Made by a program: the position numbers and the translations under genes. Under the pieces are notes generated by a model. It ran no database searches. It was given only the letters and a program-made list of their open reading frames with translations, and was not told where the DNA came from. DNA of 64,000 bases from an uncultured Pseudomonadota bacterium (GTDB lineage Bacteria > Pseudomonadota > Alphaproteobacteria > Rhizobiales > Xanthobacteraceae): NCBI GenBank assembly GCA_963837965.1, contig CAWIPY010000004.1, forward strand, positions 175,335 through 239,334, read 5' to 3'. The first letter of the stretch is position 1; every line of letters begins with the position of its first letter. Positions 10,530 through 44,691 of this stretch are shown here, piece by piece.

Positions 10530-10536
10530 GCCTGCC

Positions 10537-15178: not shown

Positions 15179-15238
15179 GCGGGTATCTGCGGGTACAATT
15201 GCGGGTAGGACGCTCTTTCACAGAAAGGCGATACCCGC
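15179..15238. promoter_or_regulatory. Putative integrase arm-type binding sites
   Basis: GCGGGTA at 15179, 15189 and 15201, plus an inverted copy TACCCGC at 15232 directly before the int ATG. Confidence 0.65.
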
Positions 15239-16192: not shown

Positions 16193-16503
16193 CGCAGGAG
16201 ACTCTTTCCGCGCAGACGGCGCAGGCTGCGCTGCACCGAGCGCTCTGACACGCCCATCCGTTTGGCGATGGTGTGCGGCTGCAAGTAGGGCAGCCGGTCG
16301 CTGTACCACCACGCCTGGTTCAGATTGGCGATGACGACGATGTCGGTCGCGGTGAGCTTGAGCAGGCGTTGGCCCCGCAACAAGGCGTCGGGCAGGACCT
16401 GGTATCCGGCCTTGATCGCATCGCCCCATTTTGCCTGGGGCTGCGAGGTCGGTGCCGCTTCTTCCGCGATATCGGGCTCTAGGTCGCTGATGTCCTGCAT
16501 CAT
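16084..16503 (-). pseudogene. Winged-helix replication-initiator-like protein (DnaD_N/HTH_36-like), 3'-truncated
   Basis: GYQVLPDALL...IAKRMGVSERSVQRSLRRL; appears cut near 16178. Confidence 0.6.
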
Positions 16504-16640
16504 GGTCCGGTTTCTAATTTTTTTTGGAGGACGTGGCCAGACTTCGTCTTATTAGGGTGACAATGATGACGCCGTTTCTACTTGGGCCTAGCACCGAGGG
16601 CCCCCGGGCCGGGTCCCAATGCCAGCCCCTGTAGAGATTG

Positions 16641-16794
16641 TTTTTCACAAAATATCTGTTTTGCAATCGTTTTTCATGAGATATTGTGATTTTTCAGGAA
16701 GGTCGCCAGATGTGATGGTTTTTCGCAAGGAGCGATCGTTTTTCATGAAAAATGGCCAGCAACAGCGTTTTTCAGGGCCGGTGACGGTTTTTCA
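16641..16794. repeat. Phased array of seven TTTTTC(A) motifs, spacing alternating 29/20 bp
   Basis: T5 starts at 16641, 16670, 16690, 16719, 16739, 16768 and 16788. Confidence 0.75.
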
Positions 16795-24079: not shown

Positions 24080-24087
24080 CTGGACCG

Positions 24088-25023: not shown

Positions 25024-25024
25024 G

Positions 25025-25978
25025 TCAGATCGCCCCAAGCTTAGGATGGCTGAATGGCGGGAGATTGATGCCAAGCGGCTTCATCTGATCTCGAATGCGC
25101 TTCACCGTGGAGATGAAGACGGGCTTTTCGGCTTCTTCGACTGTCGCCCCCAGTCCCGCTTCATAAGTAATGCGGTCGGCTTCGACCTCCGCGAGCGAGG
25201 CCGGATTCTCCGGAGCAAGCCAGCTGCTGTGATAACCGTTGAGCTCGACCTTTTCCATCATCGTAATGACCGAGTTTTCGATCATCTTCTTCTGCTCGGG
25301 CGTCAAGGTTTCGCAGATGGCCTCGAGGAAGTACCAGCCGAAGGCGCAGTGCCGAGACTCGTCGCGCATGATGAAGCGTACGACCTGTTTTGCGACAGGG
25401 TCGCGCGTAACATCCTCAAGATGGCGGAAGACGTCGAAGGCGATTTCTTCGGCAGTACAGACCAGTGCCGCAATGATTCCTTCGAGTGGAACGTCCTCAT
25501 TAAGGGTCGCACGGCGAACGCCGTGCGTCGATACCGACCCCTCGAAAAGCTGCTGCACGGGCTTTTCGATGTAGCCGCCCAGGCGTTCCGCCATTGTATG
25601 GCAGACTTCCGCATGCCGAGCTTCCTCCTGGGAGCGGATCGTGAAGAAGAGCTGCATGTCCGAGGGCCGCTTCTCGATCCCGAACCGAAGCTGCAGGGAC
25701 GGGCTTTCGGAAATCGCCCCGTATTCGCTCCATGCACGCCTGCTCCAGTAAAGACGCGCGGCGTAGCGCTGCTCGTCTGTATAGGCTTCAGGATCGAGTT
25801 GATCCCAATCGACATCGGTCTTGGGATCCCATTGGTTTCGTGTGGCCGCGTGAAAAAGCTCACGAATTCGCGGAAGATCGGAATTGAACGTGAGCGGGAA
25901 GCGACTTTCCGGGCCGTCGAGCAGCGTCTGCACCACCTCGAAGGCCTGCTGTTCCGACATATCGCGCGTCAGCGCCAT
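25025..25978 (-). CDS. Ferritin-like diiron oxygenase-type protein (subunit A)
   Basis: SEYGA, EEARH, AEEIA and DESRH match the E / ExxH / E / ExxH carboxylate-diiron pattern. Confidence 0.82.
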   Translation of the reverse strand: MALTRDMSEQQAFEVVQTLLDGPESRFPLTFNSDLPRIRELFHAATRNQWDPKTDVDWDQLDPEAYTDEQRYAARLYWSRRAWSEYGAISESPSLQLRFGIEKRPSDMQLFFTIRSQEEARHAEVCHTMAERLGGYIEKPVQQLFEGSVSTHGVRRATLNEDVPLEGIIAALVCTAEEIAFDVFRHLEDVTRDPVAKQVVRFIMRDESRHCAFGWYFLEAICETLTPEQKKMIENSVITMMEKVELNGYHSSWLAPENPASLAEVEADRITYEAGLGATVEEAEKPVFISTVKRIRDQMKPLGINLPPFSHPKLGAI

Positions 25979-29322: not shown

Positions 29323-29375
29323 ACTTATGGACTTTGGCCGGGGTCCGAATCCAGAGTTCGAAGCAGGGGCCAGCC

Positions 29376-30527
29376 ATGAATCCGAAATCACCGGCAAATA
29401 CGAGCGAGCCGTGGCGCGTTGGCGTTCTCTTCTCCCGCACCGGCTTCATGGCGATCATCGAAGAAACGCAAGTCCATGGCACGTTGATCGCAATCGAAGA
29501 AATCAACGAGCGTGGCGGCATCAATGGCCGCGAACTCGTTCCGGTCATTTACGATCCCGCTTCCGAGAATGCGCTGTTTAGGGCTTATGCGAAGCGCATG
29601 ATCGTTGAAGATCAGCTTTCGACAATCTTTGGTTGCTACACGTCCAGCAGCCGCAAAGCCGTCTTGCCGATCGTCGAGCGGCTGAACTGCCTGCTCTGGT
29701 ATCCGACCCTCTACGAGGGCTTCGAATACTCCCCCAATGTCATCTATACCGGCGCCGCGCCAAACCAGAACAGCGTTTCCCTCTGCCAATTTCTCACCGA
29801 GAAATACGGGAACCGCTTCTACCTTATCGGTTCCGACTACGTATATCCGCGCGAGTCGAACCGGGTGATGCGCGAACTCCTGAACAAACGCGGCGGCCAA
29901 GTCGTCGGTGAGCGCTATGTCGGCCTGCGGGCGTCGCGACGAGACTTCGTCCCGGTCCTCAACGAGATCCGCGAGCTTTCGCCCGACGTCATCTTCTCCA
30001 CGGTCGTGGGCGAAGCCACCATCTACCTCTACCAGGCCTATGCCGATTTCGGGTTCGATCCGCGCAACATGCCGATTGCGAGCCTGACCACTACGGAGAC
30101 CGAAATCCGCGCCATGGGGTCGGACGTGGGCGAGGGCCATATCACGGCGGCGCCTTATTTCGAGGGCTTGCCCGGAGCGGCCAACGACGCCTTTGTGAAG
30201 CGCTACAAGCGCCGCTTTGGCGACGACCAGTCCACCAATATGTGCGTGGAAGCGGCGTATTTTCAGGTCCATCTGTTTGCACGCGCGCTGGAACTCGCCA
30301 ACTCGCTGGATCCGGAGATTCTGCGGCCCATGGTTCTCGGCTCCAGCTTGGAGGCGCCCCAGGGCACTGTTTCGATCGACGCGGGGTGCAGCCATGCCAA
30401 TCTCTGGAGTCGCATCGGCCGGGCAAACGGTCGCGGCCAATTCGACCTGCTGCAGGAATCGTCTTCCCTGGTGCCGCCCGATCCGTTCCTGACCGGAACC
30501 GGCTTCGGCCGGCTGGTCCCAGCGTAA
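29376..30527 (+). CDS. amiC: Cytoplasmic amide sensor AmiC
   Basis: Periplasmic-binding fold without signal peptide; GCYTSSSRKAVLP and YPTLYEG motifs; adjacent to an ANTAR regulator. Confidence 0.88.
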   Translation: MNPKSPANTSEPWRVGVLFSRTGFMAIIEETQVHGTLIAIEEINERGGINGRELVPVIYDPASENALFRAYAKRMIVEDQLSTIFGCYTSSSRKAVLPIVERLNCLLWYPTLYEGFEYSPNVIYTGAAPNQNSVSLCQFLTEKYGNRFYLIGSDYVYPRESNRVMRELLNKRGGQVVGERYVGLRASRRDFVPVLNEIRELSPDVIFSTVVGEATIYLYQAYADFGFDPRNMPIASLTTTETEIRAMGSDVGEGHITAAPYFEGLPGAANDAFVKRYKRRFGDDQSTNMCVEAAYFQVHLFARALELANSLDPEILRPMVLGSSLEAPQGTVSIDAGCSHANLWSRIGRANGRGQFDLLQESSSLVPPDPFLTGTGFGRLVPA

Positions 30528-30542: not shown

Positions 30543-31121
30543 ATGGCGCCGCCGCGGCATGAGACGGAAAAATTATCGGTCCTCGTCGCGGCGGAACGCG
30601 ATGCCCAGGTCGACCTGCTGTTGCGCGAATTGCGGCGAAGCGCCAGCCACGTCATTCACCTGTTTCCGGTGACGGACCGGCTGCCGGCCGAGCACGACAT
30701 CATCCTGGCCGATATCAGTCTCCCATTGTCGGATCAGTTGCCTTGGGTGCCCGGCGAGGCCACCGCCGCGCTGATCCTTCTCCTTCCCGAAAACGGCCAG
30801 CACTCGCTGAAAAAGCTGCGCGCTTGCTGTCCGGACGCGGTGCTCCACCGTCCGTTCCAGCCGAGCGCGATCCTGACGAGCCTGGTGATCGCGCGCAGCC
30901 AGTTCCAGTTCATCCGGCGGCTGCGCAGCCGAATCGCGCGTCTCGACGAGAACATCAAGGCGATTCGCGACATAGAGCGCGCCAAATTGATCGTTATGGA
31001 CATGCGCCGGATCGGCGAAGACGAAGCCTACGCATATTTGCGCAGCCAGGCCATGGAGCGACGCACGACCGTCGCCTCCTTCGCCTCCCATCTTGTTGAC
31101 TCCCACCAACTGCTCGGTTAG
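30543..31121 (+). CDS. amiR: AmiR-type ANTAR antiterminator (pseudo-receiver + ANTAR)
   Basis: C-terminal IERAKLIVM...EDEAYAYLRSQAMERR ANTAR motif. Confidence 0.88.
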   Translation: MAPPRHETEKLSVLVAAERDAQVDLLLRELRRSASHVIHLFPVTDRLPAEHDIILADISLPLSDQLPWVPGEATAALILLLPENGQHSLKKLRACCPDAVLHRPFQPSAILTSLVIARSQFQFIRRLRSRIARLDENIKAIRDIERAKLIVMDMRRIGEDEAYAYLRSQAMERRTTVASFASHLVDSHQLLG

Positions 31122-31150: not shown

Positions 31151-31233
31151 GCGGCAACAGCGCCGCCTACATCGAAACAGGCATCAAAGCCTCACAACGA
31201 ACCGCCCGTTCGTCGTGGGGCTTTTTGTTTTTT
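31151..31233 (+). promoter_or_regulatory. ANTAR dual-hairpin leader overlapping an intrinsic terminator (site 1)
   Basis: P1 GCGGC-AACAGC-GCCGC; P2 AGGC-ATCAAA-GCCT; terminator AAAGCCTCAC...GTGGGGCTTT plus T tract. Confidence 0.8.
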
Positions 31234-31252
31234 GTTCTGGGAGAACACGAAC

Positions 31253-32506
31253 ATGAGCATAAAGAGGCGTGACTTCCTGAAGGCAACGGCTGCGGCTGGC
31301 GCTGCCGCTTCTTTCGGATTCCCTCACATCTGGATCAAGAACGCCGATCTCGCGCACGCGGCCGGCGGCGAGATCAAGGTTGGCGTACTGTACTCATTGA
31401 CCGGCACCACGGCGATCATCGAGACGTCGCTGAATCAGGCCTGCCTGATGGCGATCGAAGAGATCAACGCCGCCGGTGGCATCAACGGCATGAAGCTGAA
31501 GCCGGTCGTGGAGGATCCCGCCTCCGATCCGGCCACCTTCGCGCAGAAAGCCCGCAAACTCGTCCTCGGCGACAAGTGCGTCAGCGTGTTCGGCTCCTAC
31601 ACCTCGGCGAGCCGCAAGGCCGTGCTGCCGGTCTTCGAGAAGTACCACAATCTCTATTGGTATCCGACCCTCTACGAGGGCCGCGAATGCTCGATGAACG
31701 TGATCTACACGGGCGCAGTGCCCAACCAGCAGCAGCAGGATTTCGTCCCCTGGCTGATGAAGAACTTCGGCAAGAAGTTCTATCTGATCGGGTCGAACTA
31801 CATCTATCCGAAGGAAGAGAACAACGTCTGTAAGATCCTGCTCAAGCGGCTGGGCGGCGAAGTGGTCGGCGAGGAATACGTGCCGCTCGGTCATTCCGAG
31901 TTCAGCTCCGTGATCCAGAAATTCAAGGACACCAAGCCGAACGTCATCTTCTCAACCGTGGTGGGCGACTCCGTGGTGGCGCTGCACCGCCAGTACAAGG
32001 CGGCGGGTCTCGATCCGGCCAAGATGCCGATGGCGAGCCTGACCACGTCGGAAGAGGAAATCGCGGCGATGGGCGGCGAGTTCGCCACCGGGCACTTCAC
32101 CTCGGCGCCGTACTTCATGTCGTACGACTCGCCGGAAAATCACAAGTTCGTCGAGGCCTTCAAGAAGAAATACGGCAAGGACAAGGTGACGAACTTCGTC
32201 TCCGAGCCCGCCTATTTCCAGGTCTACCTGTTCAAACAGGCGGTCGAGAAGCTCGGCGGCAAGAATCTCACCCCGCCCGAAATCCGCAAGGCGGCTTGGG
32301 GTCAGCAATTCAAGGCCCCGCAAGGCCTGGTGAAGATCGACCCGGATAACTCGCATACCTACCTCTGGCCGAAGATCGGCGAGGCCCAGTCGAACGGCCA
32401 GTTCAAGATCATCGAACAGGTCAAGGAATGGGTCGAGCCCAAGCCTTACTGGGCCTATCAGGGGCAGGTCTGCACGCCGACCGGCCTTAAGATGACCAAG
32501 TCATAA
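31253..32506 (+). CDS. urtA: Urea/amide ABC substrate-binding protein, Tat signal
   Basis: MSIKRRDFLK, SLTGTTAIIE, GSYTSASRKAVLP and YPTLYEG motifs. Confidence 0.88.
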   Translation: MSIKRRDFLKATAAAGAAASFGFPHIWIKNADLAHAAGGEIKVGVLYSLTGTTAIIETSLNQACLMAIEEINAAGGINGMKLKPVVEDPASDPATFAQKARKLVLGDKCVSVFGSYTSASRKAVLPVFEKYHNLYWYPTLYEGRECSMNVIYTGAVPNQQQQDFVPWLMKNFGKKFYLIGSNYIYPKEENNVCKILLKRLGGEVVGEEYVPLGHSEFSSVIQKFKDTKPNVIFSTVVGDSVVALHRQYKAAGLDPAKMPMASLTTSEEEIAAMGGEFATGHFTSAPYFMSYDSPENHKFVEAFKKKYGKDKVTNFVSEPAYFQVYLFKQAVEKLGGKNLTPPEIRKAAWGQQFKAPQGLVKIDPDNSHTYLWPKIGEAQSNGQFKIIEQVKEWVEPKPYWAYQGQVCTPTGLKMTKS

Positions 32507-32645: not shown

Positions 32646-33518
32646 ATGGCAGATACCCTGAATCAGATCTTCACCGGGCTCAGTATCGCTTCAATCCTTC
32701 TTCTGGTGTCCCTCGGACTTGCCATCATTTACGGCACGATGGGGGTGATCAATCTCGCCCACGGCGAGTTTGTCATGCTCGGCGCCTATTCGGTCTGGTT
32801 TTTGCAGACGATCTTTGGGCTCGATCTTTTGATCTGCGTGGTAATTGCCTTCTTCATGGTTGCCGCAGTCGGTTGGCTTATCGAACGCCTGATCGTCCAG
32901 CATCTCTACAAACGGCCGCTCGATACCATTCTGGCCACATGGGGCGTCGGCGTGATCCTGCAGCAGAGCATCCGGCTCAGCGCAGGTGCCAAGCTGCGCT
33001 ACATAAAGATGCCTGACTGGCTGACCAAAGCTGTGCCTGTATTCGGCGTCGACGTGTCGGCCTACCGGATTTTCATCTTCGCGCTGACGGTCGCGCTGCT
33101 GGCATTCACCTTTTTCCTCATCACCCGCACGCGCTATGGCTTCCGTCTGCGGGCGGTGACGCAGAACGCCGAGGTGGCGCGCTGCTTCGGCATCAACGCT
33201 TCGCGCGTCTATGGGCTCACCTTCGCCTATGGCGCCGGGCTTGCCGGTGTCGCGGGCGCGCTGATCGGTCCGCTGAAGAGCGTTTCGCCCGACATGGGCA
33301 CCAGTGTCGTGGTCGACGCCTTCATGGTGGTGGTGGTCGGCGGCGTATCGAGCCTGCTCGGAACAGTCGCCAGCGCCGGCCTGCTCGGCGAAATGTCGGG
33401 GCTTCTGGCCTATCTCTACAACGACACGCTGGCCAAGGCGCTGGTCTTCTTCGCCGTCGTTATCCTGATCCGGTTCAGGCCGGAAGGCATGTTCACCGTG
33501 CGCGTGCGGCGAGGCTGA
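32646..33518 (+). CDS. urtB: Urea/amide ABC permease
   Basis: GVINLAHGEF, PLDTILATWGV and DAFMVVVVGG motifs. Confidence 0.88.
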   Translation: MADTLNQIFTGLSIASILLLVSLGLAIIYGTMGVINLAHGEFVMLGAYSVWFLQTIFGLDLLICVVIAFFMVAAVGWLIERLIVQHLYKRPLDTILATWGVGVILQQSIRLSAGAKLRYIKMPDWLTKAVPVFGVDVSAYRIFIFALTVALLAFTFFLITRTRYGFRLRAVTQNAEVARCFGINASRVYGLTFAYGAGLAGVAGALIGPLKSVSPDMGTSVVVDAFMVVVVGGVSSLLGTVASAGLLGEMSGLLAYLYNDTLAKALVFFAVVILIRFRPEGMFTVRVRRG

Positions 33519-33521: not shown

Positions 33522-34673
33522 ATGAGTTCATCCAATTACGCGCGCTGGCGGCTGGCGGGCTACCTGCTGTTCTGCGTCCTCATCCTGATCTTTCCGCTGG
33601 TTCTCAACAACGACTACCTGCTCAACAAGTACATGCGCTACCTGGTATTCGGGATTCTGTCGGCGGCGCTGTCCTTTTCGTGGGGCTACACGGGCATCCT
33701 CAATCTCGGCCAGGCAGTGAGTTTCGGGCTCGGCTCCTACGCCATGGCGATGGCGCTCAAGCTGCGTACCATCCCGATCCAGACCGGCGCCAAGGGGCTG
33801 CCGGACTTCATGGTCTGGAACAACGTCAAGACGCTGCCGTGGTTCTGGGAGCCGTTCCATTCCTACGCCTTCGCCATATTCGCCGGCATGGCGGTGCCCA
33901 TGCTGCTCGCCATGCTGCTCGGCTGGTTCATGTTCCGCGGCCGCATTACCGGCGTCTTCGTCGCCATCATCACGCTTGCAATGCTGGTCGTGGTGAACCT
34001 GCTGATCATCGACCAGCAGAAATACACAGGCGGGTTCAACGGCATCACCGACCTCACCACGTTGAAGGTGTTCGGCGTCGCATTCGACGCCTACAGCTCC
34101 AACACCTACTACCTGATTGCAGGCACGCTCTGCGTCGTTCTGCTCGGCGGCCTTGCCATTACCCAGACGAAGACTGGACTGATCTTGCAGGCGATCCGCG
34201 ACGACGAAAACCGCGTTCGCTATTTCGGCTACGACGTCGGCGCTTATCAGATCTTCGCCTTCACCGTGTCCGCCGGCGTCGCCGGTTTTGCCGGCATGCT
34301 CTACACGCTGGTGATGGAATTCGCCTCGCCGACCTTCCTTGCCGTTCCCTTGAGCCTTTCCATCGTGATCTGGTGCGCGGTCGGCGGCCGCAGCTCGCTC
34401 GTCGGTGCCGCCCTCGGCGCCATTCTGGTCACCGGCGTGCAGGGCAATCTGTCTGAATCACCGACCTTTCTCGACACCTGGATGCTGGTCATGGGCGCCA
34501 TTTTCATCGCCGTGGTGCTGTTCCTGCCGAAAGGCCTGATCAGCCTGATCGACATCGGCGCCGAGGCCCTCAATCGCCGGCGGAATCCTTCAGGCGACAG
34601 CCAGTCGAAGCGGCCGGGGACGAAAATCGGCGACGTCGCGCTGCAACGCTCCGACCGCGTGCGAAAGGGCTAA
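33522..34673 (+). CDS. urtC: Urea/amide ABC permease
   Basis: WGYTGILNLGQ, LPDFMVWN...LPWFW and AIRDDENRVRYFGY motifs. Confidence 0.88.
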   Translation: MSSSNYARWRLAGYLLFCVLILIFPLVLNNDYLLNKYMRYLVFGILSAALSFSWGYTGILNLGQAVSFGLGSYAMAMALKLRTIPIQTGAKGLPDFMVWNNVKTLPWFWEPFHSYAFAIFAGMAVPMLLAMLLGWFMFRGRITGVFVAIITLAMLVVVNLLIIDQQKYTGGFNGITDLTTLKVFGVAFDAYSSNTYYLIAGTLCVVLLGGLAITQTKTGLILQAIRDDENRVRYFGYDVGAYQIFAFTVSAGVAGFAGMLYTLVMEFASPTFLAVPLSLSIVIWCAVGGRSSLVGAALGAILVTGVQGNLSESPTFLDTWMLVMGAIFIAVVLFLPKGLISLIDIGAEALNRRRNPSGDSQSKRPGTKIGDVALQRSDRVRKG

Positions 34674-34674: not shown

Positions 34675-35427
34675 ATGGCGGCTCTTCTCGAAATGCGCGA
34701 CGTGCATGTCAGCTTCAGCGGCTTTCGCGCCGTGTCCGGCCTCGACCTTACCGTCGAACAGGGCGAACTGCGCTGCCTTATCGGCCCGAACGGCGCCGGC
34801 AAGACCACGGCGCTCGACGCCATCTGCGGCAAGGCGAGGGCCGCCGCCGGCGAGATTCTCTACCGCAGCCACAACATCACGCGCTGGCAGGAATACCTCA
34901 TCGCCCGCCTCGGAATTGGCCGCAAGTTTCAAGTGCCGAGCGTGTTCAAGGATTTGACCGTTCGCGAGAACCTGCGCGTCGCCTACTGCAAGCAGCGCGG
35001 AGTCTTCCCGAACCTCGTTCGGGGCCACAATGGCGACAGCGTCGATGGCCTGGAGAAGCTCGCCGAGCTCGTCGGTCTCAAGGACGAACTGCACCGGCCG
35101 GCGCGCCGGCTCTCGCACGGCCAGACGCAATGGCTGGAAACGGCTTTGCTGTTGGCTCAGGACGCCGATCTCATCCTGATGGACGAGCCGACCGCGGGCA
35201 TGACCAGCGCGGAGACCCACAAGACCGCCGAACTGTTCAACCGGTTGAAAGGCCGCCACACCCTCATCGTGGTCGAGCACGACATGGGTTTCGTCAAGGA
35301 GATCGGCGACACCATTTCGGTGATGCATCAGGGACGCATCCTCGCCGAAGGCAAGATCGCCGACATCGAGCAGAACCCGGAAGTGAAACGCGCCTATCTC
35401 GGGTCGGGAGGGATTTCCGGTGCTTGA
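34675..35427 (+). CDS. urtD: Urea/amide ABC ATPase
   Basis: GPNGAGKT, GRKFQVP, LSHGQTQW and DEPTAGM motifs. Confidence 0.9.
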   Translation: MAALLEMRDVHVSFSGFRAVSGLDLTVEQGELRCLIGPNGAGKTTALDAICGKARAAAGEILYRSHNITRWQEYLIARLGIGRKFQVPSVFKDLTVRENLRVAYCKQRGVFPNLVRGHNGDSVDGLEKLAELVGLKDELHRPARRLSHGQTQWLETALLLAQDADLILMDEPTAGMTSAETHKTAELFNRLKGRHTLIVVEHDMGFVKEIGDTISVMHQGRILAEGKIADIEQNPEVKRAYLGSGGISGA

Positions 35428-36115
35428 ACTGATCGACGTCGACGCCTTCTACGGCAACAGCCGCGCACTGCAGGGCGTCAGCATGCAGATCCGCGAAAAG
35501 GAGTTGCTGAGCGTCCTGGGCCGCAACGGCGTCGGCAAGACCACACTGCTGCGCACCATCATCGGCTTGATGGACCGGACGACCGGCGCGTTGCGCCTCG
35601 ACGATCAGGACATCGCGCGCGTGCCCACTGACGAACGCGCCAAGATCGGTATCGCCTATGTGCCGCAAGGGCGGGGCATTCTCCCGAAATTCACCGTTCG
35701 CGAGAATCTCTATCTCGGCCTGTTCGCACGCAAGATCCAGACCACGGTCATCGACGATTTCGTTTTCGAGTTGTTTCCGATGCTCAAGGAGCATCTGGGC
35801 CGGCTCGGCGGAAACCTGTCGGGCGGTCAGCAGCAACAGCTCGCTATCGCCCGCGCCCTGCTGACGGAGCCGAAGATCGTTCTTCTCGACGAGCCGACCG
35901 AAGGCATTCAGCCGAGCATCGTGGAGGAGATCGAGGCCGTCATCTTGAAGCTCAATCGAGAGCACGGCATTGCCGTGGTCCTGGTCGAGCAGAACGTGGC
36001 GTTTGCCCGCCGCGCCTCGCAGCGCTTCGTCATCATGGAGCGCGGCACGATCGCCGCTCAGGGCGACATCGGCGAGCTGAGCGACTCCCTTGTCCACAAA
36101 CACATGACGGTTTGA
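35420..36115 (+). CDS. urtE: Urea/amide ABC ATPase
   Basis: GRNGVGKT, LSGGQQQQ and DEPTEGIQP motifs; GTG start. Confidence 0.9.
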   Translation: MLELIDVDAFYGNSRALQGVSMQIREKELLSVLGRNGVGKTTLLRTIIGLMDRTTGALRLDDQDIARVPTDERAKIGIAYVPQGRGILPKFTVRENLYLGLFARKIQTTVIDDFVFELFPMLKEHLGRLGGNLSGGQQQQLAIARALLTEPKIVLLDEPTEGIQPSIVEEIEAVILKLNREHGIAVVLVEQNVAFARRASQRFVIMERGTIAAQGDIGELSDSLVHKHMTV

Positions 36116-36154: not shown

Positions 36155-37192
36155 ATGCTTCACGGCGACATTTCGAGCAGTAACGACACCGTCGGCGTCG
36201 CGGTCGTCAACTACAAGATGCCGCGCATGCACACCAAGAAGGAGGTCCTGGCCAACGCCCAGAACATCGCCGACATGCTGGTCGGCATGAAGACGGGCTT
36301 GCCGGGCATGGATCTGGTCATATTCCCGGAATACAGCACGCACGGGATCATGTACGACCAGAAGGAAATGTACGAAACCGCCTCCAGCGTGCCGGGCGAA
36401 GAGACCGATATCTTCGCCGCCGCCTGCCGCAAGGCCAAGGTCTGGGGCGTGTTCTCGCTGACCGGCGAGCGCCATGAAGACCATCCCAACAAGGCGCCTT
36501 ACAACACCCTCATCCTGATGAACGACAAGGGCGAGATCGTTCAGAAATACCGCAAGATCATGCCGTGGGTGCCGATCGAAGGATGGTATCCCGGCAACTG
36601 CACCTATGTTTCCGAAGGGCCGAAAGGCCTCAAGGTCAGCCTGATCATCTGCGACGACGGCAATTATCCGGAAATCTGGCGCGATTGCGCCATGAAGGGC
36701 GCCGAGCTCATCGTTCGCTGCCAGGGTTACATGTATCCGGCGAAGGACCAGCAGGTGATCATGGCGAAAGCCATGGCCTGGGCCAACAACTGCTATGTGG
36801 CGGTGGCCAATGCCGCAGGGTTCGACGGCGTCTACTCTTATTTCGGCCATTCGGCGATCATCGGCTTCGACGGCCGTACCCTCGGCGAATGCGGCGAAGA
36901 GGACATGGGGATCCAGTACGCGCAGCTCTCCAAGTCGCTGATCCGCGATGCGCGCCGCAACATGCAGTCGGAGAACCACTTGTTCAAGCTGGTGCATCGC
37001 GGCTACACGGGCATGATTAACTCCGGTGAGAGCCCGCGCGGCGTGGCGGCATGCCCATACGACTTCTACCAGCGCTGGATCACCGATCCGGAGGGGACCC
37101 GCGAAAGCGTCGAGGCCCTGACCCGCGCCACAGTGGGCACCGACGAATGCCCGATCGAGGGTATTCCCAACAAGGCGGCCACCCACCGCTAG
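36155..37192 (+). CDS. amiE: Aliphatic amidase (nitrilase superfamily)
   Basis: [24 protein letters not shown] start like Pseudomonas AmiE; PEYS, YRK and ICDD catalytic motifs. Confidence 0.97.
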
Positions 37193-37282
37193 CCGCCGTC
37201 CGCGCCCAGAAGCGAGCCGCCGGCAGGCGTTTTGCAAACTGCCGCGCGGTCCACTCGAGGACCGCGCGGCCACTCTCTGCCT

Positions 37283-38116
37283 ATGGAGTATGCGTTGACC
37301 TCGCCGAATAAGAAGCCGCCGGCCCTCGACGAATTTTATATTCGCGAGGAGCCCTATTACCGCGCCCATGGCGACGAGGTCGCCCTGTTCGAGGCGGCCT
37401 ATGCCAACCGAATCCCGGTCATGCTGAAAGGTCCGACCGGCGTCGGCAAGACCCGCTTCATGGAGCATATGGCGTGGCGACTGAAACGGCCGCTGATTAC
37501 GGTTGCCTGCCACGAGGACATGACCGCTTCCGATCTGGTCGGCCGTTTTCTGCTCGATGCGGAAGGCACCGTGTGGCACGACGGACCGCTGACGCTTGCC
37601 GTCCGCTACGGCGCGATCTGCTATCTCGACGAGGTTGTCGAGGCGCGCCAGGATACCACCGTGGTCATCCATCCGCTGACCGACGACCGCCGGGTGCTGC
37701 CCATCGAGAAACGCAACGAACTCATCCACGCGCATCCCGATTTCGGCCTCGTGGTTTCCTACAATCCGGGCTATCAGAGCGTTCTCAAGGACCTGAAGGA
37801 ATCGACCAAGCAGCGCTTCATCGCCCTCGACTTCTCCTATCCGGATTCCCAATTGGAAGCCGAGATCGTCGCGCACGAGGCCGGGGTTTCCCGCGCCGAG
37901 GCGGAGCGCCTGGTGACGATCGGTCAACGCTCGCGCAACCTGAAGGGCCACGGGCTCGACGAGGGCGCCTCGACCCGCATGTTGATCCATGCCGGCCGCC
38001 TGATGCAGAAGGGCGTCACGTTGCAAAGCGCCTGCACGACCGCCATGGTGTTGCCGATCACTGACGATCCCGATCTCAGAGAGGCGCTGAACGAGGCCAT
38101 CGCCGCGTGCCTTTGA
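37283..38116 (+). CDS. CbbQ/NirQ/NorQ-family AAA+ ATPase
   Basis: [34 protein letters not shown] and EGASTR motifs. Confidence 0.93.
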
Positions 38117-38129
38117 GGGAGGCAGCCCA

Positions 38130-40412
38130 ATGACCGGCGCCGATGCGCTTATTCAAGACTTGTTGGAACGCTCGCGCATTTCGGGCCTGATCGGTCCAAC
38201 ATCGTGGAACACCGTCCAGCGCGCGTTTCCCGGCCTCGCCTTCGAGCGCTGGGTCGACGTCATGGAAAGCCTGATCGACGGCGGCCTCGGCTCGACGACG
38301 GTGCTGAATTTCGTGCAGGCGAGCCCATCGGTTGCACGGCTGATGGGGATCGAGGCGGCACTCACCGTCGGCAAGACAGCCCGGCAAGTTGCCGCCTGCG
38401 CCGGTGGCCAGGCGGCGGCCGCGCTCATTGCCGCCTCGACGCGCGCTGCCGGTCAGGCCAGCGACGAAGCGACGTTTCGTACCTGGCTGGAGATGTTGGC
38501 TGCCGTCGCCGAGCAGGCGCCGGCAGCCGTCCCCGCGCTGCTGCACCGCACGGAACTCGTTCTTTCCGTGCTTGGCCCCGATGCTCTGCGTTCCTGGATT
38601 CTCGTCGGCTTGCGGCTGACCGCCGGTCAGCCGGAGCGAAGCCTTGCCTATTTCTCGCTGGCCGACGCGGACTCCTTGCGGCTGTTCGAGCACGAGGCCG
38701 GCAATGTCGTGCTGGCGACGGTGGAGCGGCGGCTGCGTCATTATCTATCGGCGCTGTGGGGCATCAGGCCGTTCATCCGCGCCACCGGCCAGCGGACGGC
38801 GGTCAAACCGGTGCGGCGCGCGACTTTCGACGGCTTCGTGATCCGGATGCCCGATCACTTTCCCGGCTTTTCCGGACAACAGGCGACCCGTCTCTTCCAT
38901 GCAGCCGTCGCCCATATAGGCGCGCACATGGTGTTCACGCCGCAGCGCTTTCCGGTACGCAGCCTGAAACCGCTGCAGGTGGCGTTGATTTCCCTGATCG
39001 AGGATGCCCGTATCGAAGCGCTGGCCGGCCGCCGGTTCCCCGGGCTGACGCGGCTTTGGCGCACATTCCACGTGGCCGAACCGGAGGGGCCCCTTCTCGC
39101 CCTTCCCCTGATGGCGCGTTTGTCGCGGGCGCTGATCGATCCCGATTACGAGGATCCCGACCCGTGGGTGCGCAAGGGCCGCGCCATGTTCAACGATGCA
39201 CAATCGAACTGGGAAGACCAGGCGATCAGCCGCGAGATCGGCGGCCTGCTCGGCAACGATCTCGGCCAGATGCGCGTTCAGTTCAACCCGAAGACCTACG
39301 TGGTCGAGCCCGCCTATCGTGACGACAACCTCGGCATCTGGGACATGGGTCAGCCGGACGCGCCGCCGTCGGAAGAAACGGACGTCATCGAGCAGGGTGT
39401 GCGCATCAACCGGACCGAAGAGGAGCCCGAGCCGGAGCAGCGCTCGCGCACCGAGCAGGACGAGGCCGGCAATGCGCGCGCGGTGCAGTTGCGCCCAATG
39501 GAAGAGGACACCGGCATTCCGGTCGCCCGCTACGGCGAATGGGACTATGTCACCGGGAGCGAACGGCTCGACTGGGTCACCGTGCAGGAGTTCGAGCCGC
39601 GCGCGGCGCCCGCGCGCATCATCGATCGGGTCCTCGCCGAACATGCCGACGCGCTTTATCGCATTCGCCGCCTGATCAAGTCGGCGCGGGTGAGCCGTCC
39701 GTCGCGGCTGCGCCGCCAGCCGGAAGGCGAGCGCCTCGACCTTCAGGCCTCGATCCAGGCGACGATCGATCGCCGCGCCGGCATCACGCCGGACACGCGG
39801 GTCTACGAGACCATGGAGCTGAAGCACCGCGATCTGTCGGTGATGCTGCTTCTCGATATTTCCGAATCGACAAAGGATACGATCCGCGGCTCCAGCACCA
39901 GCGTGTTCTCCATCGAGATCGCGGCCACGGCGCTCGTCGCAGAGGCCATGACCGGCCTCGGCGATCCCTTTGCCATCAGCGCCTTCTGCTCCAACGGACG
40001 CGAGGAAGTGCGCTACTATCGCGTCAAGGATTTCGAGGCGAGTTACGGCGAGCAGAGCCGGTCGAGGCTCGCCGGTCTGCGCGGCGGCCTGTCGACCCGC
40101 ATGGGCGCTGCGCTGCGGCACGCCGGCCATGAGCTGGCGCAGCAGCAGACCTTCCGCCGGCTGCTGCTGATCGTCACCGACGGCGAGCCCTCCGATACCG
40201 ATGTGAGCGACCGGCGTTACCTCGTGGAAGACGCGCGCAAGGCCGTGCAATCGCTCGCGCATGAGGGCATCGACGTGTTCTGTGTCGGCCTCGACAGCGG
40301 CGGCGACAGCTATCTCACGCGCATCTTCGGCCGGCGCAACGTCATCCAGATCGACAAGGTGACCGCTCTGCCTGAAAAATTGCCGATGCTCTATCTGCGG
40401 CTCGCCGCTTGA
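38130..40412 (+). CDS. NorD/CbbO-type VWA-domain protein
   Basis: EWDY, LLLDISES (MIDAS), STRMGAALRHA and VTDGEP motifs. Confidence 0.9.
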   Translation: MTGADALIQDLLERSRISGLIGPTSWNTVQRAFPGLAFERWVDVMESLIDGGLGSTTVLNFVQASPSVARLMGIEAALTVGKTARQVAACAGGQAAAALIAASTRAAGQASDEATFRTWLEMLAAVAEQAPAAVPALLHRTELVLSVLGPDALRSWILVGLRLTAGQPERSLAYFSLADADSLRLFEHEAGNVVLATVERRLRHYLSALWGIRPFIRATGQRTAVKPVRRATFDGFVIRMPDHFPGFSGQQATRLFHAAVAHIGAHMVFTPQRFPVRSLKPLQVALISLIEDARIEALAGRRFPGLTRLWRTFHVAEPEGPLLALPLMARLSRALIDPDYEDPDPWVRKGRAMFNDAQSNWEDQAISREIGGLLGNDLGQMRVQFNPKTYVVEPAYRDDNLGIWDMGQPDAPPSEETDVIEQGVRINRTEEEPEPEQRSRTEQDEAGNARAVQLRPMEEDTGIPVARYGEWDYVTGSERLDWVTVQEFEPRAAPARIIDRVLAEHADALYRIRRLIKSARVSRPSRLRRQPEGERLDLQASIQATIDRRAGITPDTRVYETMELKHRDLSVMLLLDISESTKDTIRGSSTSVFSIEIAATALVAEAMTGLGDPFAISAFCSNGREEVRYYRVKDFEASYGEQSRSRLAGLRGGLSTRMGAALRHAGHELAQQQTFRRLLLIVTDGEPSDTDVSDRRYLVEDARKAVQSLAHEGIDVFCVGLDSGGDSYLTRIFGRRNVIQIDKVTALPEKLPMLYLRLAA

Positions 40413-40593: not shown

Positions 40594-40666
40594 GTGGCAA
40601 CGGCGCCACGCCAATCTAAGGCATCAACGCCTCACGCACGATCGTCGGTCGTGGAGGCGTTTTTTT
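40594..40666 (+). promoter_or_regulatory. ANTAR dual-hairpin leader overlapping an intrinsic terminator (site 2)
   Basis: P1 GTGGC-AACGGC-GCCAC; P2 AGGC-ATCAAC-GCCT; terminator AACGCCTC...GAGGCGTT plus T tract. Confidence 0.85.
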
Positions 40667-40796
40667 ATTTCCGTCCCAGGACCGATTCTCACGTGAGGCG
40701 ACCCCGTTCTGCGGGAAAGGCCCGCAGGCGCAACGCGTCTTGCTGCGTGCGTGCGAGTGGCACGCGCAGGCAGCCAATCGGTAAAAGGGGCAATCC

Positions 40797-42122
40797 ATGA
40801 CGACGACGCCGCATCACGGTGCGCAGATAGAAGAGATAGAGCAAGAAGTCGATCACGTACTCGGCTCCGAATACGAGCATACGCCCGTTCCCATGAGCGC
40901 GCGGCGCAGCATGTTCTCGGTGACCATGGTGTGGATCGGCTTCCCGATGATCATCACCGGAGCGATGACGGGGTCGATCCTGGTGGCCGGCATGGGCTTC
41001 AAGCGCGCGCTTGTCGCCATGATCGTCGGTAACTTGATGATGTTCGCCTATGTCGGCGCGCTCGGCGTTCTCGGCACCCGCCGGGGCATGAACTACGCGC
41101 TGCTCGCCAGCATCGTCTTCGGCCGCAAAGGCTATGTCTTTTCGTCCGGCCTCCTGGCGACGCTGCTGCTCGGCTGGTACGCGGTGCAGACCGGTATCAC
41201 CGGCAATCTCGTCAGCAGCACCTACCACGTCAATTACGTGCTGATGACGGCCATCGCCGGCATTCTCTATATCGGCATCACCTTCATCGGCGTGCGCGGC
41301 CTGCACTGGATCGGAATGATCTCGGTCCCGCTCTTCGTGATCCTCGGCGCGTGGGTGGCAATTGACGCCGCGGCTGGATCGGGCTGGAGCGCGGTCGTCA
41401 ACTATCCCGGCAACAACGGCGCCGCCACCATGTCGATGGGCGTCGGCCTTACCGTGGTATTGACGCTGTTCGTCGATGCCGGGACCGTGACGGCGGACTT
41501 CAATCGATGGGCGAAGGATACGACGAGCTCGCTGGTGTCGACGTTCAGCGCGTTTCCGTTCGCCAATCTGCTCGCCATGTTGGCAGGTGGCGTCATGACT
41601 GCCGCGCTGGCCAAGCCGAACGCCAATCCGTTCGGCGCCGACAACATGTTCGGCTACATGAACAGCATGCAGATGGTGTGGCTGAGCGCCCTGGCGTTCC
41701 TGTTCCTCTACTGCAACCTCGGCTCGGTCTGCTCGCACTGCCTCTATAACGCGGCGACCGGCTGGTCGCGCATCTTCGGCAGCCATATGCGGCTGCTGGC
41801 GGTCATTCTGGGCGCAATCGGCATCGTCATCGCCGCCGGAAACGTCTGGGCCTACTTCATCCAGTGGCTGTCGCTGCTCGGCATCCTGGTGCCGCCGATC
41901 GGGGCGATCATCCTGGTCGATCAGTATGTGCTGCGGCCGAATTCGGACGTCGAAAAGGATTGGCGGTCGTCGGCTTTCATCGCCTGGGCGGCCGGCTCGA
42001 TCGTGGCGTTCTTCGTCAACAGCTATGCCCCGGACTGGTCGACCGCGATCTCCGCTTTCGTGGTGGCAGGCGTCGTCTACTGGGGTCTGGGCGCGTTCAT
42101 GCCCAAGCACGCGTTCGCCTGA
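40797..42122 (+). CDS. NCS1 / cytosine permease (CodB-like)
   Basis: About 12 TM segments; VPMSARR, GWYAVQTG and LVPPIGAIILVD motifs. Confidence 0.88.
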   Translation: MTTTPHHGAQIEEIEQEVDHVLGSEYEHTPVPMSARRSMFSVTMVWIGFPMIITGAMTGSILVAGMGFKRALVAMIVGNLMMFAYVGALGVLGTRRGMNYALLASIVFGRKGYVFSSGLLATLLLGWYAVQTGITGNLVSSTYHVNYVLMTAIAGILYIGITFIGVRGLHWIGMISVPLFVILGAWVAIDAAAGSGWSAVVNYPGNNGAATMSMGVGLTVVLTLFVDAGTVTADFNRWAKDTTSSLVSTFSAFPFANLLAMLAGGVMTAALAKPNANPFGADNMFGYMNSMQMVWLSALAFLFLYCNLGSVCSHCLYNAATGWSRIFGSHMRLLAVILGAIGIVIAAGNVWAYFIQWLSLLGILVPPIGAIILVDQYVLRPNSDVEKDWRSSAFIAWAAGSIVAFFVNSYAPDWSTAISAFVVAGVVYWGLGAFMPKHAFA

Positions 42123-42203
42123 ACTCACGAATGACACGAGGGCGCGCCGCCGAGCGGCGCGTCCTCGCGTGAATCAACCAGCAAGACGATGGACTGTAGG
42201 ACC

Positions 42204-43223
42204 ATGACAATAGACTATGAAATATATGATTTGGGCGACGTGCAGCTTCAGCGCGGCGCGACGCTGCGCGATTGCAAGCTCGCCTACAAGACGTTTGGCA
42301 AGCTCAACGCCGACAAGAGCAACGCCATCGTCTATCCGACTTGGTACTCGGGCCAGCACTACGACAACGAATGGCTGGTCGGGAAAGGCATGGCGCTCGA
42401 TCCCGACAAGTATTTCATCATCATCCCCAATATGTTCGGCAACGGCCTCTCGACCTCGCCGAGCAACACGCCGCCACCCTATAACGGCCCGCGCTTTCCG
42501 CAGGTCACCATGTACGACAATGTGCGCGCGCAGCACCGCCTGGTCACCGAGAAGTTCGGCATCAAGAAGCTCAAGATGGTCCTCGGCTGGTCAATGGGCG
42601 CCGGGCAGACCTTTCAGTGGGGCGCGCTCTACCCCGACATGATGGAGTTTCTGGTGCCGTTCTGCGGCTCGGCAAAATGCGCGCGCCACAACTTCGTCTT
42701 TCTCGAAGGCGTCAAGGCGGCGCTGACCGCGGACGCGGCTTTCAACGAAGGCTGGTACAAGGAGCAGCCCAACAAAGGCCTGCGCGCCGCGGCGCGCGTC
42801 TATGCCGGCTGGGGCTTCTCTCAGGCCTTCTATCGCCAGGAGCTTGACATCAAGGCCCTCGGCTTTTCCTCGCTCGAGGATTTCCTGGTCGCATTCTGGG
42901 AAGGCTTCTTCATGCCGAAGGACGCCAACAACCTGCTGACCATGCTGTGGACCTGGCAGTACAGCGACCTCAGCGCCAACGAACTCTACAACGGCGACGT
43001 CAAGAAGGCGCTGGGCGCGATCAAGGCGAAAACCTACGTCATGCCCGGAAAGACCGATCTCTACTTCCCGCCGGAGGACAGCGAGAACGAAGTGGCCAAC
43101 ATGCCCAACGCCGAGCTCATACCGATCCCGTCGGTCTGGGGTCACTTCGCGGGCGGTCCGGGCACCAATCCCGACGACGTGAAGTTTCTGGACCAGAAAC
43201 TGAAGGAGCTTCTGGGAAGCTAG
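42204..43223 (+). CDS. Homoserine O-acetyltransferase-like alpha/beta hydrolase
   Basis: LAYKTFG, PNMFGNG, GWSMG, TDLYFPPED and WGHFAG (Ser/Asp/His) motifs. Confidence 0.85.
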   Translation: MTIDYEIYDLGDVQLQRGATLRDCKLAYKTFGKLNADKSNAIVYPTWYSGQHYDNEWLVGKGMALDPDKYFIIIPNMFGNGLSTSPSNTPPPYNGPRFPQVTMYDNVRAQHRLVTEKFGIKKLKMVLGWSMGAGQTFQWGALYPDMMEFLVPFCGSAKCARHNFVFLEGVKAALTADAAFNEGWYKEQPNKGLRAAARVYAGWGFSQAFYRQELDIKALGFSSLEDFLVAFWEGFFMPKDANNLLTMLWTWQYSDLSANELYNGDVKKALGAIKAKTYVMPGKTDLYFPPEDSENEVANMPNAELIPIPSVWGHFAGGPGTNPDDVKFLDQKLKELLGS

Positions 43224-43245
43224 TCGAGCTCACGGGGAGAATGGC

Positions 43246-44691
43246 ATGGCGGGCGTTGGTGAAATCTGCCGCATGGACGCGGTCAGTATTGCGAAGGCGG
43301 TGCGTGAGAAGAAGTTGTCGCCGGTGGAGGTGGTCGACGCTTCGCTTTCGGCAATGGACGAACTGGAGCCGAAGCTGCACGCCTTTTGCACGCCGACGCC
43401 CGACCTTGCGCGCGCCCGCGCCAAGGAGATCGAGCGGGACATTGCCGCCGGCAAGCCGGTCGGACCGCTTGCCGGCGTTCCCATCGGGATCAAGGATCTG
43501 GTCTGCACCAAGGGCATCGCCACCGTCTCCGGCTCCGTCGCCTATCGCGATTTCGTCCCCGATGAAGACGACGTGGTGGTCGAGCGTCTTGTCGCGGCCG
43601 GCGCCGTGATCGTCGGCAAGACGAACGTGCCTGAGTTCGGCTACAGCGGCGTCGGCCATAATCCGGTGTTCGAGACCACGCGCAACCCGTGGAACACCGA
43701 GATGACATCGGGCGGGTCGAGCGCCGGCTCGGGCGCCGCCGTCGCCGCGGGCATGTGTCCCTTCGCCATCGGCAGCGACGGCGGCGGATCGGTCCGCATT
43801 CCGGCCGCGCATTGCGGCCTCTATGGTCTCAAGGCGTCCATGGGGCGCGTTCCGCTCTATCCGGGCACCAAGGACGAACGTTACCCCGGCGTCTCGAGTT
43901 GGGAGAGCCTCGAACATATCGGCCCCATCAGTCGGACGGTGGCCGACAGCGCGCTGATGATGTCGGTGATCGCCGGTCCCGATCCGCGCGATCGGAACAG
44001 CCTGCCGGAGGCTTCGTTCGACTGGACCAAATGCGCCGAGGGCGATCTCAAGGGCCTTAAGGTGGCCTACAGCCCGGACTGGGGCTATGCCGCGGTCGAT
44101 CCGCGCGTGCGCAAGATCGTCGGCGATGCCGTTCGGGTCTTCGAACGGGATCTCGGCTGCAGCGTGGAAGAGGCGCATCCCGGATGGGACGATCCCTACG
44201 CCGCGTTCTGGGGCATCGTTGCCGCCGAATCCGACCTGGTCGGCCTGCGCGCGATGGCGGACAAGTATGAAGCGCAGATGACGCCGCACGTGGTCGATTT
44301 CATCCGCCGCAATTGGACCGCCGAAGAGCTCACAAGCGCGGTGATGGGCCGCAAGGCGGTTAATAACAAGATGTGGCGTTTCATGCAGAAATACGATCTG
44401 CTGTTGACGCCGACGCTGGCCGTGCCGGCGTTCCCCGTGCACGTCCAGGGGCCCGAGAAGATCGACGGGCAAATCGTGGCGCCGTTCCGTTGGCTGGCAT
44501 TCACGTTCCCGCTGAATCTGACGGGTCAGCCGGCGGCGACCGTCCCGGCCGGCTGGACCGAAGACGGGCTGCCCGTCGGCATGCAGATCATCGGCCGCCA
44601 CCTGGACGATCCGCTGGTCTTGCGCGCCTCGGCGGCATTCGAGCAGGCGCAGCCCTGGAAGGACCGCTGGCCGCCGATTTCTGTCGACTGA
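43246..44691 (+). CDS. Amidase-signature family amidase
   Basis: [19 protein letters not shown] and [12 protein letters not shown] (Ser-cisSer-Lys triad) motifs. Confidence 0.93.

Follow-up and report, generated by a model that had tools for sequence, protein, structure and literature searches.

Introduction

In a general class of gene pairs, a gene for a MoxR-class AAA+ ATPase is followed by a gene for a protein that carries a VWA (von Willebrand factor A) domain. Among the characterised members, CbbQO acts on fully assembled Rubisco, the carboxylase and oxygenase of ribulose-1,5-bisphosphate (PMC4660213), and NorQD works in maturation by inserting the non-heme iron FeB (PMC13036017). Here we describe a pair that fits this class, which we call Q and D, directly behind amiE, the gene for an aliphatic amidase, in a stretch of 64,000 nucleotides from an uncultured bacterium of the Xanthobacteraceae (GenBank assembly GCA_963837965.1, contig CAWIPY010000004.1, positions 175,335 to 239,334 of the forward strand). 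This whole stretch is referred to as the window, and positions are counted from its first letter. On balance, we favor the view that Q/D is a CbbQO-type AAA+/VWA remodelling machine with AmiE as its client and that it likely reactivates this enzyme.

The relation between CbbQO and its client has been worked out at the client's C terminus. CbbQO needs a C-terminal His-Lys/Arg on Rubisco, of which the penultimate histidine is critical (Tsai 2015, PMC4660213); removing one or two residues or adding a single alanine abolishes both activation and ATPase stimulation, and a C-terminal Rubisco peptide alone stimulates the CbbQO ATPase (PMC4660213). Rubiscos without cbbQO end two residues earlier, and swapping the last three Rubisco residues switches activase specificity (Tsai 2022, PMC8718961). 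[quoted passage not shown] In the literature that we searched, the adjacency of a Q/D pair and amiE was mentioned once, in a 2026 plasmid study with the comment that "their roles remain unclear" (PMC13209695), and no paper joined CbbQO to an aliphatic amidase or remarked on the AmiE tail.

Results

Q and D directly follow the aliphatic amidase gene

The amiE gene (36155 to 37192, plus strand) encodes a 345-residue aliphatic amidase that scored 725 bits against NF009802 (cut-off 427) and 661 and 641 bits against the aliphatic amidase structures PDB 2plq and 2uxy. Behind it on the same strand lie Q (37283 to 38116), a 277-residue CbbQ-type MoxR AAA+ ATPase with PF07728 (AAA_5) and PF08406 (CbbQ_C) domains that would serve as the motor, and D (38130 to 40412), a 760-residue CbbO-like VWA protein with a C-terminal PF00092 domain that would serve as the adaptor. 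An earlier note on this DNA, made from its letters, had placed an AAA+ ATPase and a MIDAS-bearing VWA protein directly after amiE at 37283 to 40412, and our analysis confirmed both the gene calls and the coordinates. Q starts at the ATG at 37283, since the resulting 277-residue product exactly matches a public protein entry; a longer TTG-initiated open reading frame (ORF) from 37232 is unnecessary. Only 13 nucleotides separate the stop of Q from the start of D, which is preceded by a GGGAGG Shine-Dalgarno sequence.

The C terminus of AmiE tracks the Q and D genes

The codons CAC CGC at 37184 to 37189 (plus strand), read from the sequence, encode His344-Arg345, with which the window AmiE ends (...IPNKAATHR), and we propose this dipeptide as a recognition tag for Q/D. 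When 118 AmiE sequences were tabulated, of which 11 had flanks too short to judge, every Q/D-linked AmiE ended in -H[RK] (68/68, one of them in -His-Lys) and no unlinked AmiE did (0/39), with no discordant sequence. The unlinked proteins ended in -NY or -NF (the Bradyrhizobium AmiE of formamidase (Fmd)-type loci), in -AAK, -GEE, -PSE or similar, or, where a Clp-like AmiB is linked, in ...GKEK(S/T/V)A(G/D). Across the 345-residue AmiE alignment, H344 (100% versus 0%) and R345 (99% versus 5%) were the sole positions that separated Q/D-linked from unlinked proteins, a separating position being one present in at least 90% of one group and at most 20% of the other. The 4-6 residues preceding the tag vary freely, so the constraint lies on the terminal dipeptide itself. 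The alignment contained no acidic surface residue specific to the linked group that could serve as a MIDAS ligand; since only the two terminal residues discriminate, any MIDAS contact would have to use a residue conserved in all AmiE.

Such an ending is rare, with H[KR] terminating about 0.5% of the predicted proteins of this genome. Among 16 neighboring products of the window, AmiE alone ends in H[KR]; the ending is absent from AmiC, AmiR, the transporter, the products of the downstream NCS1, MetX-like and amidase genes, and a ferritin-like pair encoded in the window. We also examined an AlphaFold2 model of the AmiE monomer, which was poor (predicted local distance difference test score (pLDDT) 67, below 50 for the arm at 271-345), which is unsurprising given a shallow alignment and an oligomer with swapped arms; the last 23 residues had no predicted secondary structure, and the model was not relied on.

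In an AmiE tree built without the tail columns, the presence of Q/D and the presence of the tag each changed 7 times, and all seven independent contrasts agreed. Two loci with Q/D and an -HR ending (L048 and L078) were nested within the Bradyrhizobium -NY clade. Within a single genus, the AmiE of the genome with Q/D ends in -HR and those of three congeners without Q/D end in -PH, -PR and -AK, and in a genome from the window's own family that has no Q/D, AmiE ends in -DR. We further ran the association in the forward direction, starting from four loci where AmiE has the HR tail and the flank that we fetched shows no Q/D. Both isolates among them carry the D clade, Propylenella at the end of the same contig and Ancylobacter vacuolatus elsewhere in the genome; the other two are incomplete metagenome-assembled genomes (MAGs), and the outcome for the D clade therefore comes from the isolates only. 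No member of the D clade was found in three genomes whose AmiE ends in -NY.

As a positive control, we read the Rubisco large subunits of 15 cbbQO loci: their endings were -HK or -HR, except in two form II subunits, which end in -HA. A natural control is provided by one locus (L091, contig C10 of genome G045, 7711-16377), in which an amiCR-urt-amiE cluster with a Clp-like AmiB is followed by a true cbbR-cbbL-cbbS-cbbQ-cbbO cluster: CbbL ends in -SHR and AmiE in -EETA, even though a Q/O pair lies near this non-client amiE. At the level of sequence, the AmiE tail thus stands to the Q/D genes in exactly the relation that defined CbbQO clients, but in another enzyme.

D of this type occurs in genomes with amiE

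Among 400 genomes sampled from the class, 12 had AmiE and 9 had a D of the AmiE-linked clade, in all 9 cases within 6 kb of amiE. Among 400 genomes sampled from the phylum, AmiE was present in 24, with Q/D adjoining in 7, a Clp-like ATPase adjoining in 7 and neither in 10; the seven D genes of the clade that adjoin amiE here were all less than 6 kb from it. Over these unbiased samples, all 15 D proteins of the clade came from amiE-bearing genomes, nearly all of them encoded within 6 kb of amiE. Of the 80 public loci whose AmiE most resembles that of the window, 50 likewise had Q/D within 10 kb, and carriers of Q/D include Alpha-, Beta- and Gammaproteobacteria and a MAG of the Acidobacteriaceae. 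The gene order in the 65 Q/D-linked loci that we fetched was amiE-Q-D, adjacent and on the same strand, in 40, convergent in 22, and interrupted by intervening genes in 3. A Rhizobium etli plasmid carries the same operon followed by an acetyl-CoA synthetase gene. The earlier note had suggested comparing the co-occurrence of this clade with amiE and with the ferritin-like pair of the window, and D proved to track amiE rather than the pair.

AmiE loci fell into three types: AmiC/AmiR-regulated loci, which usually have Q/D (of 51 tallied loci with linked Q/D, 40 have amiC and amiR upstream of amiE); urt-fmdA-fmdB-amiE loci, which usually have no ATPase, although two of them (L106 and L111) have Q/D; and loci with a Clp-like AmiB. 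AmiE proteins approximately 89% identical to that of the window were found without an AAA+ partner in the Fmd-type loci.

A Clp-like ATPase takes the same place in other lineages

In other lineages, amiE adjoins a gene for a single Clp/Hsp100 D2-type module (PF07724 AAA_2 plus ClpB_D2-small, with ClpB and ClpA as the best NCBIfam matches), as in Rhodococcus qingshengii plasmid pCP1, a genome of the Pseudomonas nitroreducens group, five other gamma- or betaproteobacterial genomes and genome G045. These amiE-adjacent ATPases fit the Clp-like character reported for P. aeruginosa AmiB (Wilson et al. 1995), and we take them to be AmiB; the P. aeruginosa protein is represented in our comparisons by those of the P. 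nitroreducens-group genome and Rhodococcus. Q and the Rhodococcus AmiB-like protein have only the P-loop in common, so the contrast drawn in the earlier note between a Clp-like AmiB and an unrelated Q held up. Thus, two unrelated AAA+ classes take the same place beside amiE, each with its own type of AmiE tail, and AmiB is probably a functional analogue that acts on AmiE.

The AmiE proteins of the eight AmiB-linked loci have long charged tails (...GKEKSAGA, ...GKERQLG, ...GKEKTA, ...EKTAEA). Such tails may be a handle by which AmiB threads the protein or may reflect mere descent, and since the Clp-linked AmiE proteins form one clade, tail type is inseparable from descent. On Rhodococcus plasmids, two large "tubulin-like" genes (products of 518 and 568 residues that match PF00091/PF13809 weakly), separated by a small ORF, lie behind amiE (10103-13738 of the R. 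qingshengii pCP1 locus and 8248-11828 of the R. jostii RHA1 pRHL2 locus); on pCP1, the Clp-like AmiB gene lies divergently upstream of amiE.

D forms its own clade beside CbbO

We built a tree of D from 82 proteins with checked gene context, taking AmiE-linked proteins from 80 loci and the unbiased genome samples, NorD from norCBQD clusters, and 20 added true CbbO proteins. In this quick search without bootstrap, in which a few divergent betaproteobacterial D rows sit on long branches, three clades were recovered: NorD (Shimodaira-Hasegawa-like approximate likelihood ratio test (SH-aLRT) 100), CbbO (99, 23 rows) and AmiE-linked D (100, 50 rows, among them the window D). The last of these was sister to CbbO, with NorD outside. 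Its one row not labelled AmiE-linked is the distal Ancylobacter vacuolatus copy, and the AmiE of that genome is tagged. An earlier tree with a single CbbO genome had CbbO nested among AmiE-linked branches, which the 20 further CbbO proteins resolved. The tree of Q, a search of the same kind, had the same shape with weaker support.

Other Q/D pairs came up during this sampling. At one locus (L100, contig C9 of genome G091, 7418-12565), Q and D lie between genes for a TauD-family Fe(II)/2-oxoglutarate dioxygenase and an alpha/beta hydrolase, and the 729-residue D is a long-branch sister of NorD; this pair may represent a further client class, perhaps one for metal insertion. Four LysR-cbbQ-cbbO clusters without an adjacent Rubisco gene (L093 on contig C1 of genome G045, L142, L143 and L148) fell inside the CbbO clade (form II-type) and presumably serve a Rubisco encoded elsewhere. 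No neighbor ending in H[KR] was found at L100 or L093, and a portable tag thus does not yet extend beyond Rubisco and AmiE.

Q and D share the parts of CbbQO and NorQD machines

Walker A (GPTGVGKT), Walker B (DE) and the GRxLL motif of the helix-2 insert (GRFLLD) are all visible in the alignment of Q; in NorQ, this GRxLL motif holds the VWA finger (PMC13036017). Q scored 416 and 386 bits against the CbbQ structures 5c3c and 6l1q and 322 and 303 bits against the NorQ structures 9qh4 and 9qhd, and its pairwise identity was 63-71% to CbbQ, 51-59% to NorQ and 58-80% to its AmiE-linked relatives. D aligned over its full length with AmiE-linked relatives (34-58% identity) and with CbbO (30-36%), whereas its identity to NorD, about 35%, covered only about 240 residues of the VWA domain; against the NorD chains 9qhd_G and 9qh6_G, only residues 464-759 aligned. 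At 760 residues, D also has the length of CbbO (median about 760-780) rather than that of NorD (median 641).

In an AlphaFold2 model of D (mean pLDDT 80), residues 1-210 form a helical N-domain and residues 215-400 a middle domain; a disordered linker (about 408-459) and a beta finger then lead to the VWA domain (524-760). NorD has been described with this same layout. In a fold search, the VWA domain and finger superposed on the NorD VWA domain (9qh6_G and 9qhd_G; target TM-score 0.75, 31-34% identity); only the VWA part was matched, and no structural relative of the N-terminal 400 residues was found. Conservation is poor over the N-terminal two thirds of D. The MIDAS of the VWA domain (D576-x-S578-x-S580-T581...T656...D684; 39855 to 40184, plus strand) was invariant in 58 homologues at D576, S578, S580, T656 and D684, and it is kept in all three clades, AmiE-linked D, CbbO and NorD.

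Q and D are neither NorQD nor a Rubisco activase

A search of the whole 5.1-Mb genome with PF08406 (CbbQ_C) gave a single match, Q itself. No cNorB, the catalytic subunit of nitric oxide reductase (cNOR), was found in the genome, the best NorB match reaching 23.7 bits; the single Rubisco lies on contig C11. These results bear out the earlier note in that neither nor nor Rubisco genes lie in the window (nir, which it also named, was not searched for). The Rubisco large subunit ends in ...DYVPTAAAV, without His-Lys/Arg, and its gene is followed by cbbS and by a CbbX gene of its own (TIGR02880, 503 bits). Since this Rubisco stands beside its own CbbX and lacks the tail, it has its own activase and no CbbQO tag.

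Q/D is therefore neither NorQD nor a Rubisco activase. There is no Rubisco alongside it and D falls outside the CbbO clade; there is likewise no norCBQD cluster or cNOR, and D lacks full-length homology to NorD. NorD-like matches in other genomes all lay within norCBQD clusters and in a different clade. The earlier note had called the pair NorQ/NorD (CbbQ/CbbO)-type, of which the tree and the bit scores of Q retain the CbbQO half and not the NorQD half; its view of the pair as an orphan, which it would have given up had the clade grouped with norQD and nor genes accounted for it, survives. In JGI/IMG, the clusters of the window's Q and D are named "nitric oxide reductase NorQ/NorD protein", whose NCBI names, "CbbQ/NirQ/NorQ/GpvN family" and "VWA domain-containing", are neutral; for the AmiE-linked clade, the NorQ/NorD names are probably wrong.

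The form I Rubisco operon of this genome (C11:703852-712000; 9852-17823 of locus L154) comprises cbbL, cbbS, cbbX and four further ORFs, which by length alone fit fructose bisphosphatase, phosphoribulokinase, transketolase and fructose bisphosphate aldolase. The organism, which was assembled from soil metagenome DNA and is probably a Pseudolabrys-like representative of its family, may be a facultative autotroph.

Layout of the amidase operon and its surroundings

Q and D are the last genes of an amiC-amiR-urtABCDE-amiE operon, co-transcription being judged from gene spacing alone. On the plus strand, the operon begins with genes for an AmiC-like cytoplasmic amide sensor (29334 to 30527; 397 residues; PF13433 Peripla_BP_5, 461 bits) and the AmiR antiterminator (30543 to 31121; 192 residues; PF03861 ANTAR and PF21332 AmiR_N). 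Five genes for a UrtABCDE-like ATP-binding cassette (ABC) importer of urea or short amides, assigned with NCBIfam, follow between 31232 and 36115 (31232-32506, 32646-33518, 33522-34673, 34675-35427 and 35420-36115). UrtB, UrtC, UrtD and UrtE exceeded their NCBIfam cut-offs; the UrtA-like binding protein has a twin-arginine translocation (TAT) signal and scored under the UrtA cut-off.

The 90-nucleotide spacer between amiE and Q (37193-37282; folding energy -44.7 kcal/mol) contains a GC-rich 12-bp hairpin without a T-tract (CGCGCGGTCC / GGACCGCGCG, 37244 to 37270, plus strand). Over 38 loci including the window, amiE-Q spacers, mostly 50-250 nucleotides long, folded more stably than mononucleotide shuffles (median z = -2.3). 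The hairpin may lower the dosage of Q/D relative to AmiE or protect the end of the amiE mRNA. A terminator pattern scan returned nothing convincing among amiE, Q and D. Downstream of D, a terminator-like stem followed by a T-run (AACGCCTCACG...CGTGGAGGCGTTTTTTTATTT, 40625 to 40672, plus strand) was read from the sequence; the pattern scan did not list it, probably owing to an overlong loop, and it may alternatively be part of the leader of the next operon. That separate unit (40797-44691) encodes a permease of the NCS1 family, an alpha/beta hydrolase resembling MetX (NF005757, 564 bits) and an amidase of the amidase-signature type (PF01425). NCS1 and MetX-like genes adjoin amiE in many loci, sometimes separating it from Q/D.

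Discussion

AmiE is very probably the client of Q/D, to judge from the co-occurrence, the separate clade of D and the His-Arg tag, and this agrees with the earlier note, which had proposed AmiE as a new client of a pair standing where AmiB stands in Pseudomonas. The same comparisons suggest that Q/D and AmiE interact physically. In the mechanism that we envisage, a Q hexamer would act as the motor, with a single D as the substrate adaptor that binds the AmiE hexamer. The free C-terminal His-Arg of AmiE would dock in a pocket of the Q/D complex, as in CbbQO-Rubisco, and the Mg2+ of the MIDAS of D would bind a carboxylate on the AmiE surface. By hydrolysing ATP, Q would then pull or twist the adaptor and strain the C-terminal arm of AmiE, roughly 80 residues long, loosening the tightly closed active-site pocket of the hexamer. 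This arm reportedly wraps around the partner subunit next to a pocket of 13 Å whose neck measures 3 Å, and crystals of the enzyme are reported to have held an acyl intermediate trapped on Cys166. Once the pocket is open, a dead-end ligand or a stalled acyl- or carbamoyl-enzyme species would be released from the buried Cys166 site. The neighboring Urt-type transporter probably imports urea.

Several observations weigh against a reactivating machine for AmiE. About 40% of the AmiE genomes in the phylum sample (10/24) have neither Q/D nor a Clp-like AmiB. Only four of the seven concordant switches in the AmiE tree fall on supported branches (sign-test p = 0.125) because AmiE is so conserved; resolution of the tree is poor (17 of its 112 branches are starred), and the switch count could be too high if amiE-Q-D moved as a cassette or the tail recombined. 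Co-transcription was judged from spacing because no RNA runs containing this stretch were found, the matching runs being DNA from soil and sediment metagenomes. The AmiE enzymes of Pseudomonas, Geobacillus and Helicobacter are active when made alone in Escherichia coli. Urea, reportedly a slow inhibitor of the Pseudomonas amidase, is so far only a candidate for the physiological dead-end inhibitor that reactivation would call for. Deletion of amiB reportedly had no obvious phenotype in P. aeruginosa.

Q/D could instead assist AmiE before it is active, as a chaperone of assembly or maturation that promotes formation of the hexamer and of the arm-swapped dimers at high expression. All of the evidence for the client (tag, tree and linkage) applies equally to this explanation, which would also suit the predominance of strongly inducible AmiC/AmiR-type operons among Q/D loci (40/51) and the maturation role of the related NorQD. 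We nevertheless regard it as rather unlikely: AmiE lacks a metal cofactor, CbbQO as the closest relative to have been characterised works on the finished enzyme, and AmiE proteins approximately 89% identical to that of the window do without an AAA+ partner, so help with folding or assembly is not generally needed. Since such partner-free AmiE occurs in many genomes, Q/D would be an accessory for repair or performance and not an obligatory maturase, and for this reason we rank reactivation of a blocked AmiE above its assembly. It is improbable that Q/D is a negative regulator that disassembles or inactivates AmiE, or hands it to a protease, once the amide is exhausted, or that it acts on AmiC-AmiR. 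Q/D is often linked with amiC and amiR, and C-terminal tags are often degradation signals for AAA+ machines. However, -HR is kept in nine Q/D loci without amiCR (among them both Fmd-type loci with Q/D), the AmiC/AmiR locus with a Clp-like AmiB (L091) is untagged, AmiC and AmiR have no H[KR] end, and feeding of a protease is not known for MoxR/VWA pairs.

Two further explanations, in which AmiE is not the client, have very little in their favor. The earlier note had named, as a more speculative client, the ferritin-like (R2-like) diiron pair at 23198-25074, for which Q/D would be an iron insertase like NorQD. Insertion of non-heme iron by a related pair and a location in the same window speak for this idea, but the diiron genes lie about 12 kb away in a separate operon of the opposite strand, their products end in -VKV and -RTF, D lies outside the NorD clade, and the pair does not travel with Q/D, three weak scattered matches being all that was seen among more than 150 Q/D or AmiE loci. 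We consider this client very improbable. We give equally little credence to an ordinary NorQD or CbbQO that serves a nitric oxide reductase or Rubisco elsewhere in the genome and adjoins amiE by accident. The genome does have a Rubisco, the database names point that way, and in G045 a true cbbLSQO cluster lies by chance 2.5 kb from an ami operon. This explanation is largely refuted by the lack of a cNorB, by the tail-less Rubisco with its own CbbX, by the position of D outside both the NorD and CbbO clades and by an amiE linkage kept from Alpha-, Beta- and Gammaproteobacteria to an Acidobacteriaceae MAG.

Q/D is most likely a CbbQO-type activase with a new, unrelated client, an "amidase activase" undescribed so far. 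ATP-driven activases that pry open blocked active sites are known essentially for Rubisco only, and with AmiE as a second client what looked like a peculiarity of that enzyme would become a general principle. A more tentative extension, which we consider possible but would not yet bet on, is that a free C-terminal His-Lys/Arg is a portable handle for a Q-hexamer/VWA-adaptor machine, that CbbQO-type repair extends beyond Rubisco to a thiol amidase that becomes caught in dead-end states of its own active site and that AmiE gained an AAA+ repair partner at least twice, AmiB by threading and Q/D through tag and MIDAS. If AmiE is a client of such a machine, a soluble hexameric amidase with an easy colorimetric assay would offer a simple bacterial model for tail reading and force transmission, and industrial aliphatic amidases would be predicted to be self-inhibited and to be relieved by co-expression of Q/D. 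The widespread NorQ/NorD mis-annotation in public databases would be corrected, and a role would be suggested for AmiB of the classic Pseudomonas amidase operon, an orphan that has gone unexplained for 30 years.

Among known systems, Q/D most resembles the CbbQO pairs of Acidithiobacillus ferrooxidans (Q1O1, Q2O2 and Q3O3) and Halothiobacillus, with which it shares the two-gene architecture, 64-71% identity in Q, a VWA/MIDAS adaptor of about 760 residues, a client gene just upstream and a free C-terminal His-Lys/Arg on the client that tracks the Q/O genes. It differs from them in that its proposed client is not Rubisco but a metal-free Cys-Glu-Lys amidase of the nitrilase superfamily, and in that D, with only 30-36% identity to CbbO, stands in a sister clade of its own. 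With NorQ/NorD (PDB 9qh4-9qhg), it shares the MoxR AAA+/VWA principle and a VWA domain with a pore-inserting finger and a MIDAS; however, norCB is missing from both locus and genome, NorB and NorC of nor clusters have no H[KR] end, NorD matches only the last 240-300 residues of D, and AmiE has no metal to be inserted. AmiB (P. aeruginosa amiEBCRS and the Rhodococcus ORF) likewise is an ATPase encoded directly beside amiE, but it belongs to the PF07724 plus ClpB_D2-small clade, has no VWA partner and accompanies an AmiE without His-Arg. CbbX, the red-type activase, is also an AAA+ protein that repairs an enzyme via its C-terminal tail, although it is of a different AAA+ clade and threads the tail through its pore without an adaptor. 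CbbX and CbbQO are two unrelated AAA+ classes that serve one enzyme, and by analogy this duality of Rubisco would be mirrored for AmiE by AmiB and Q/D.

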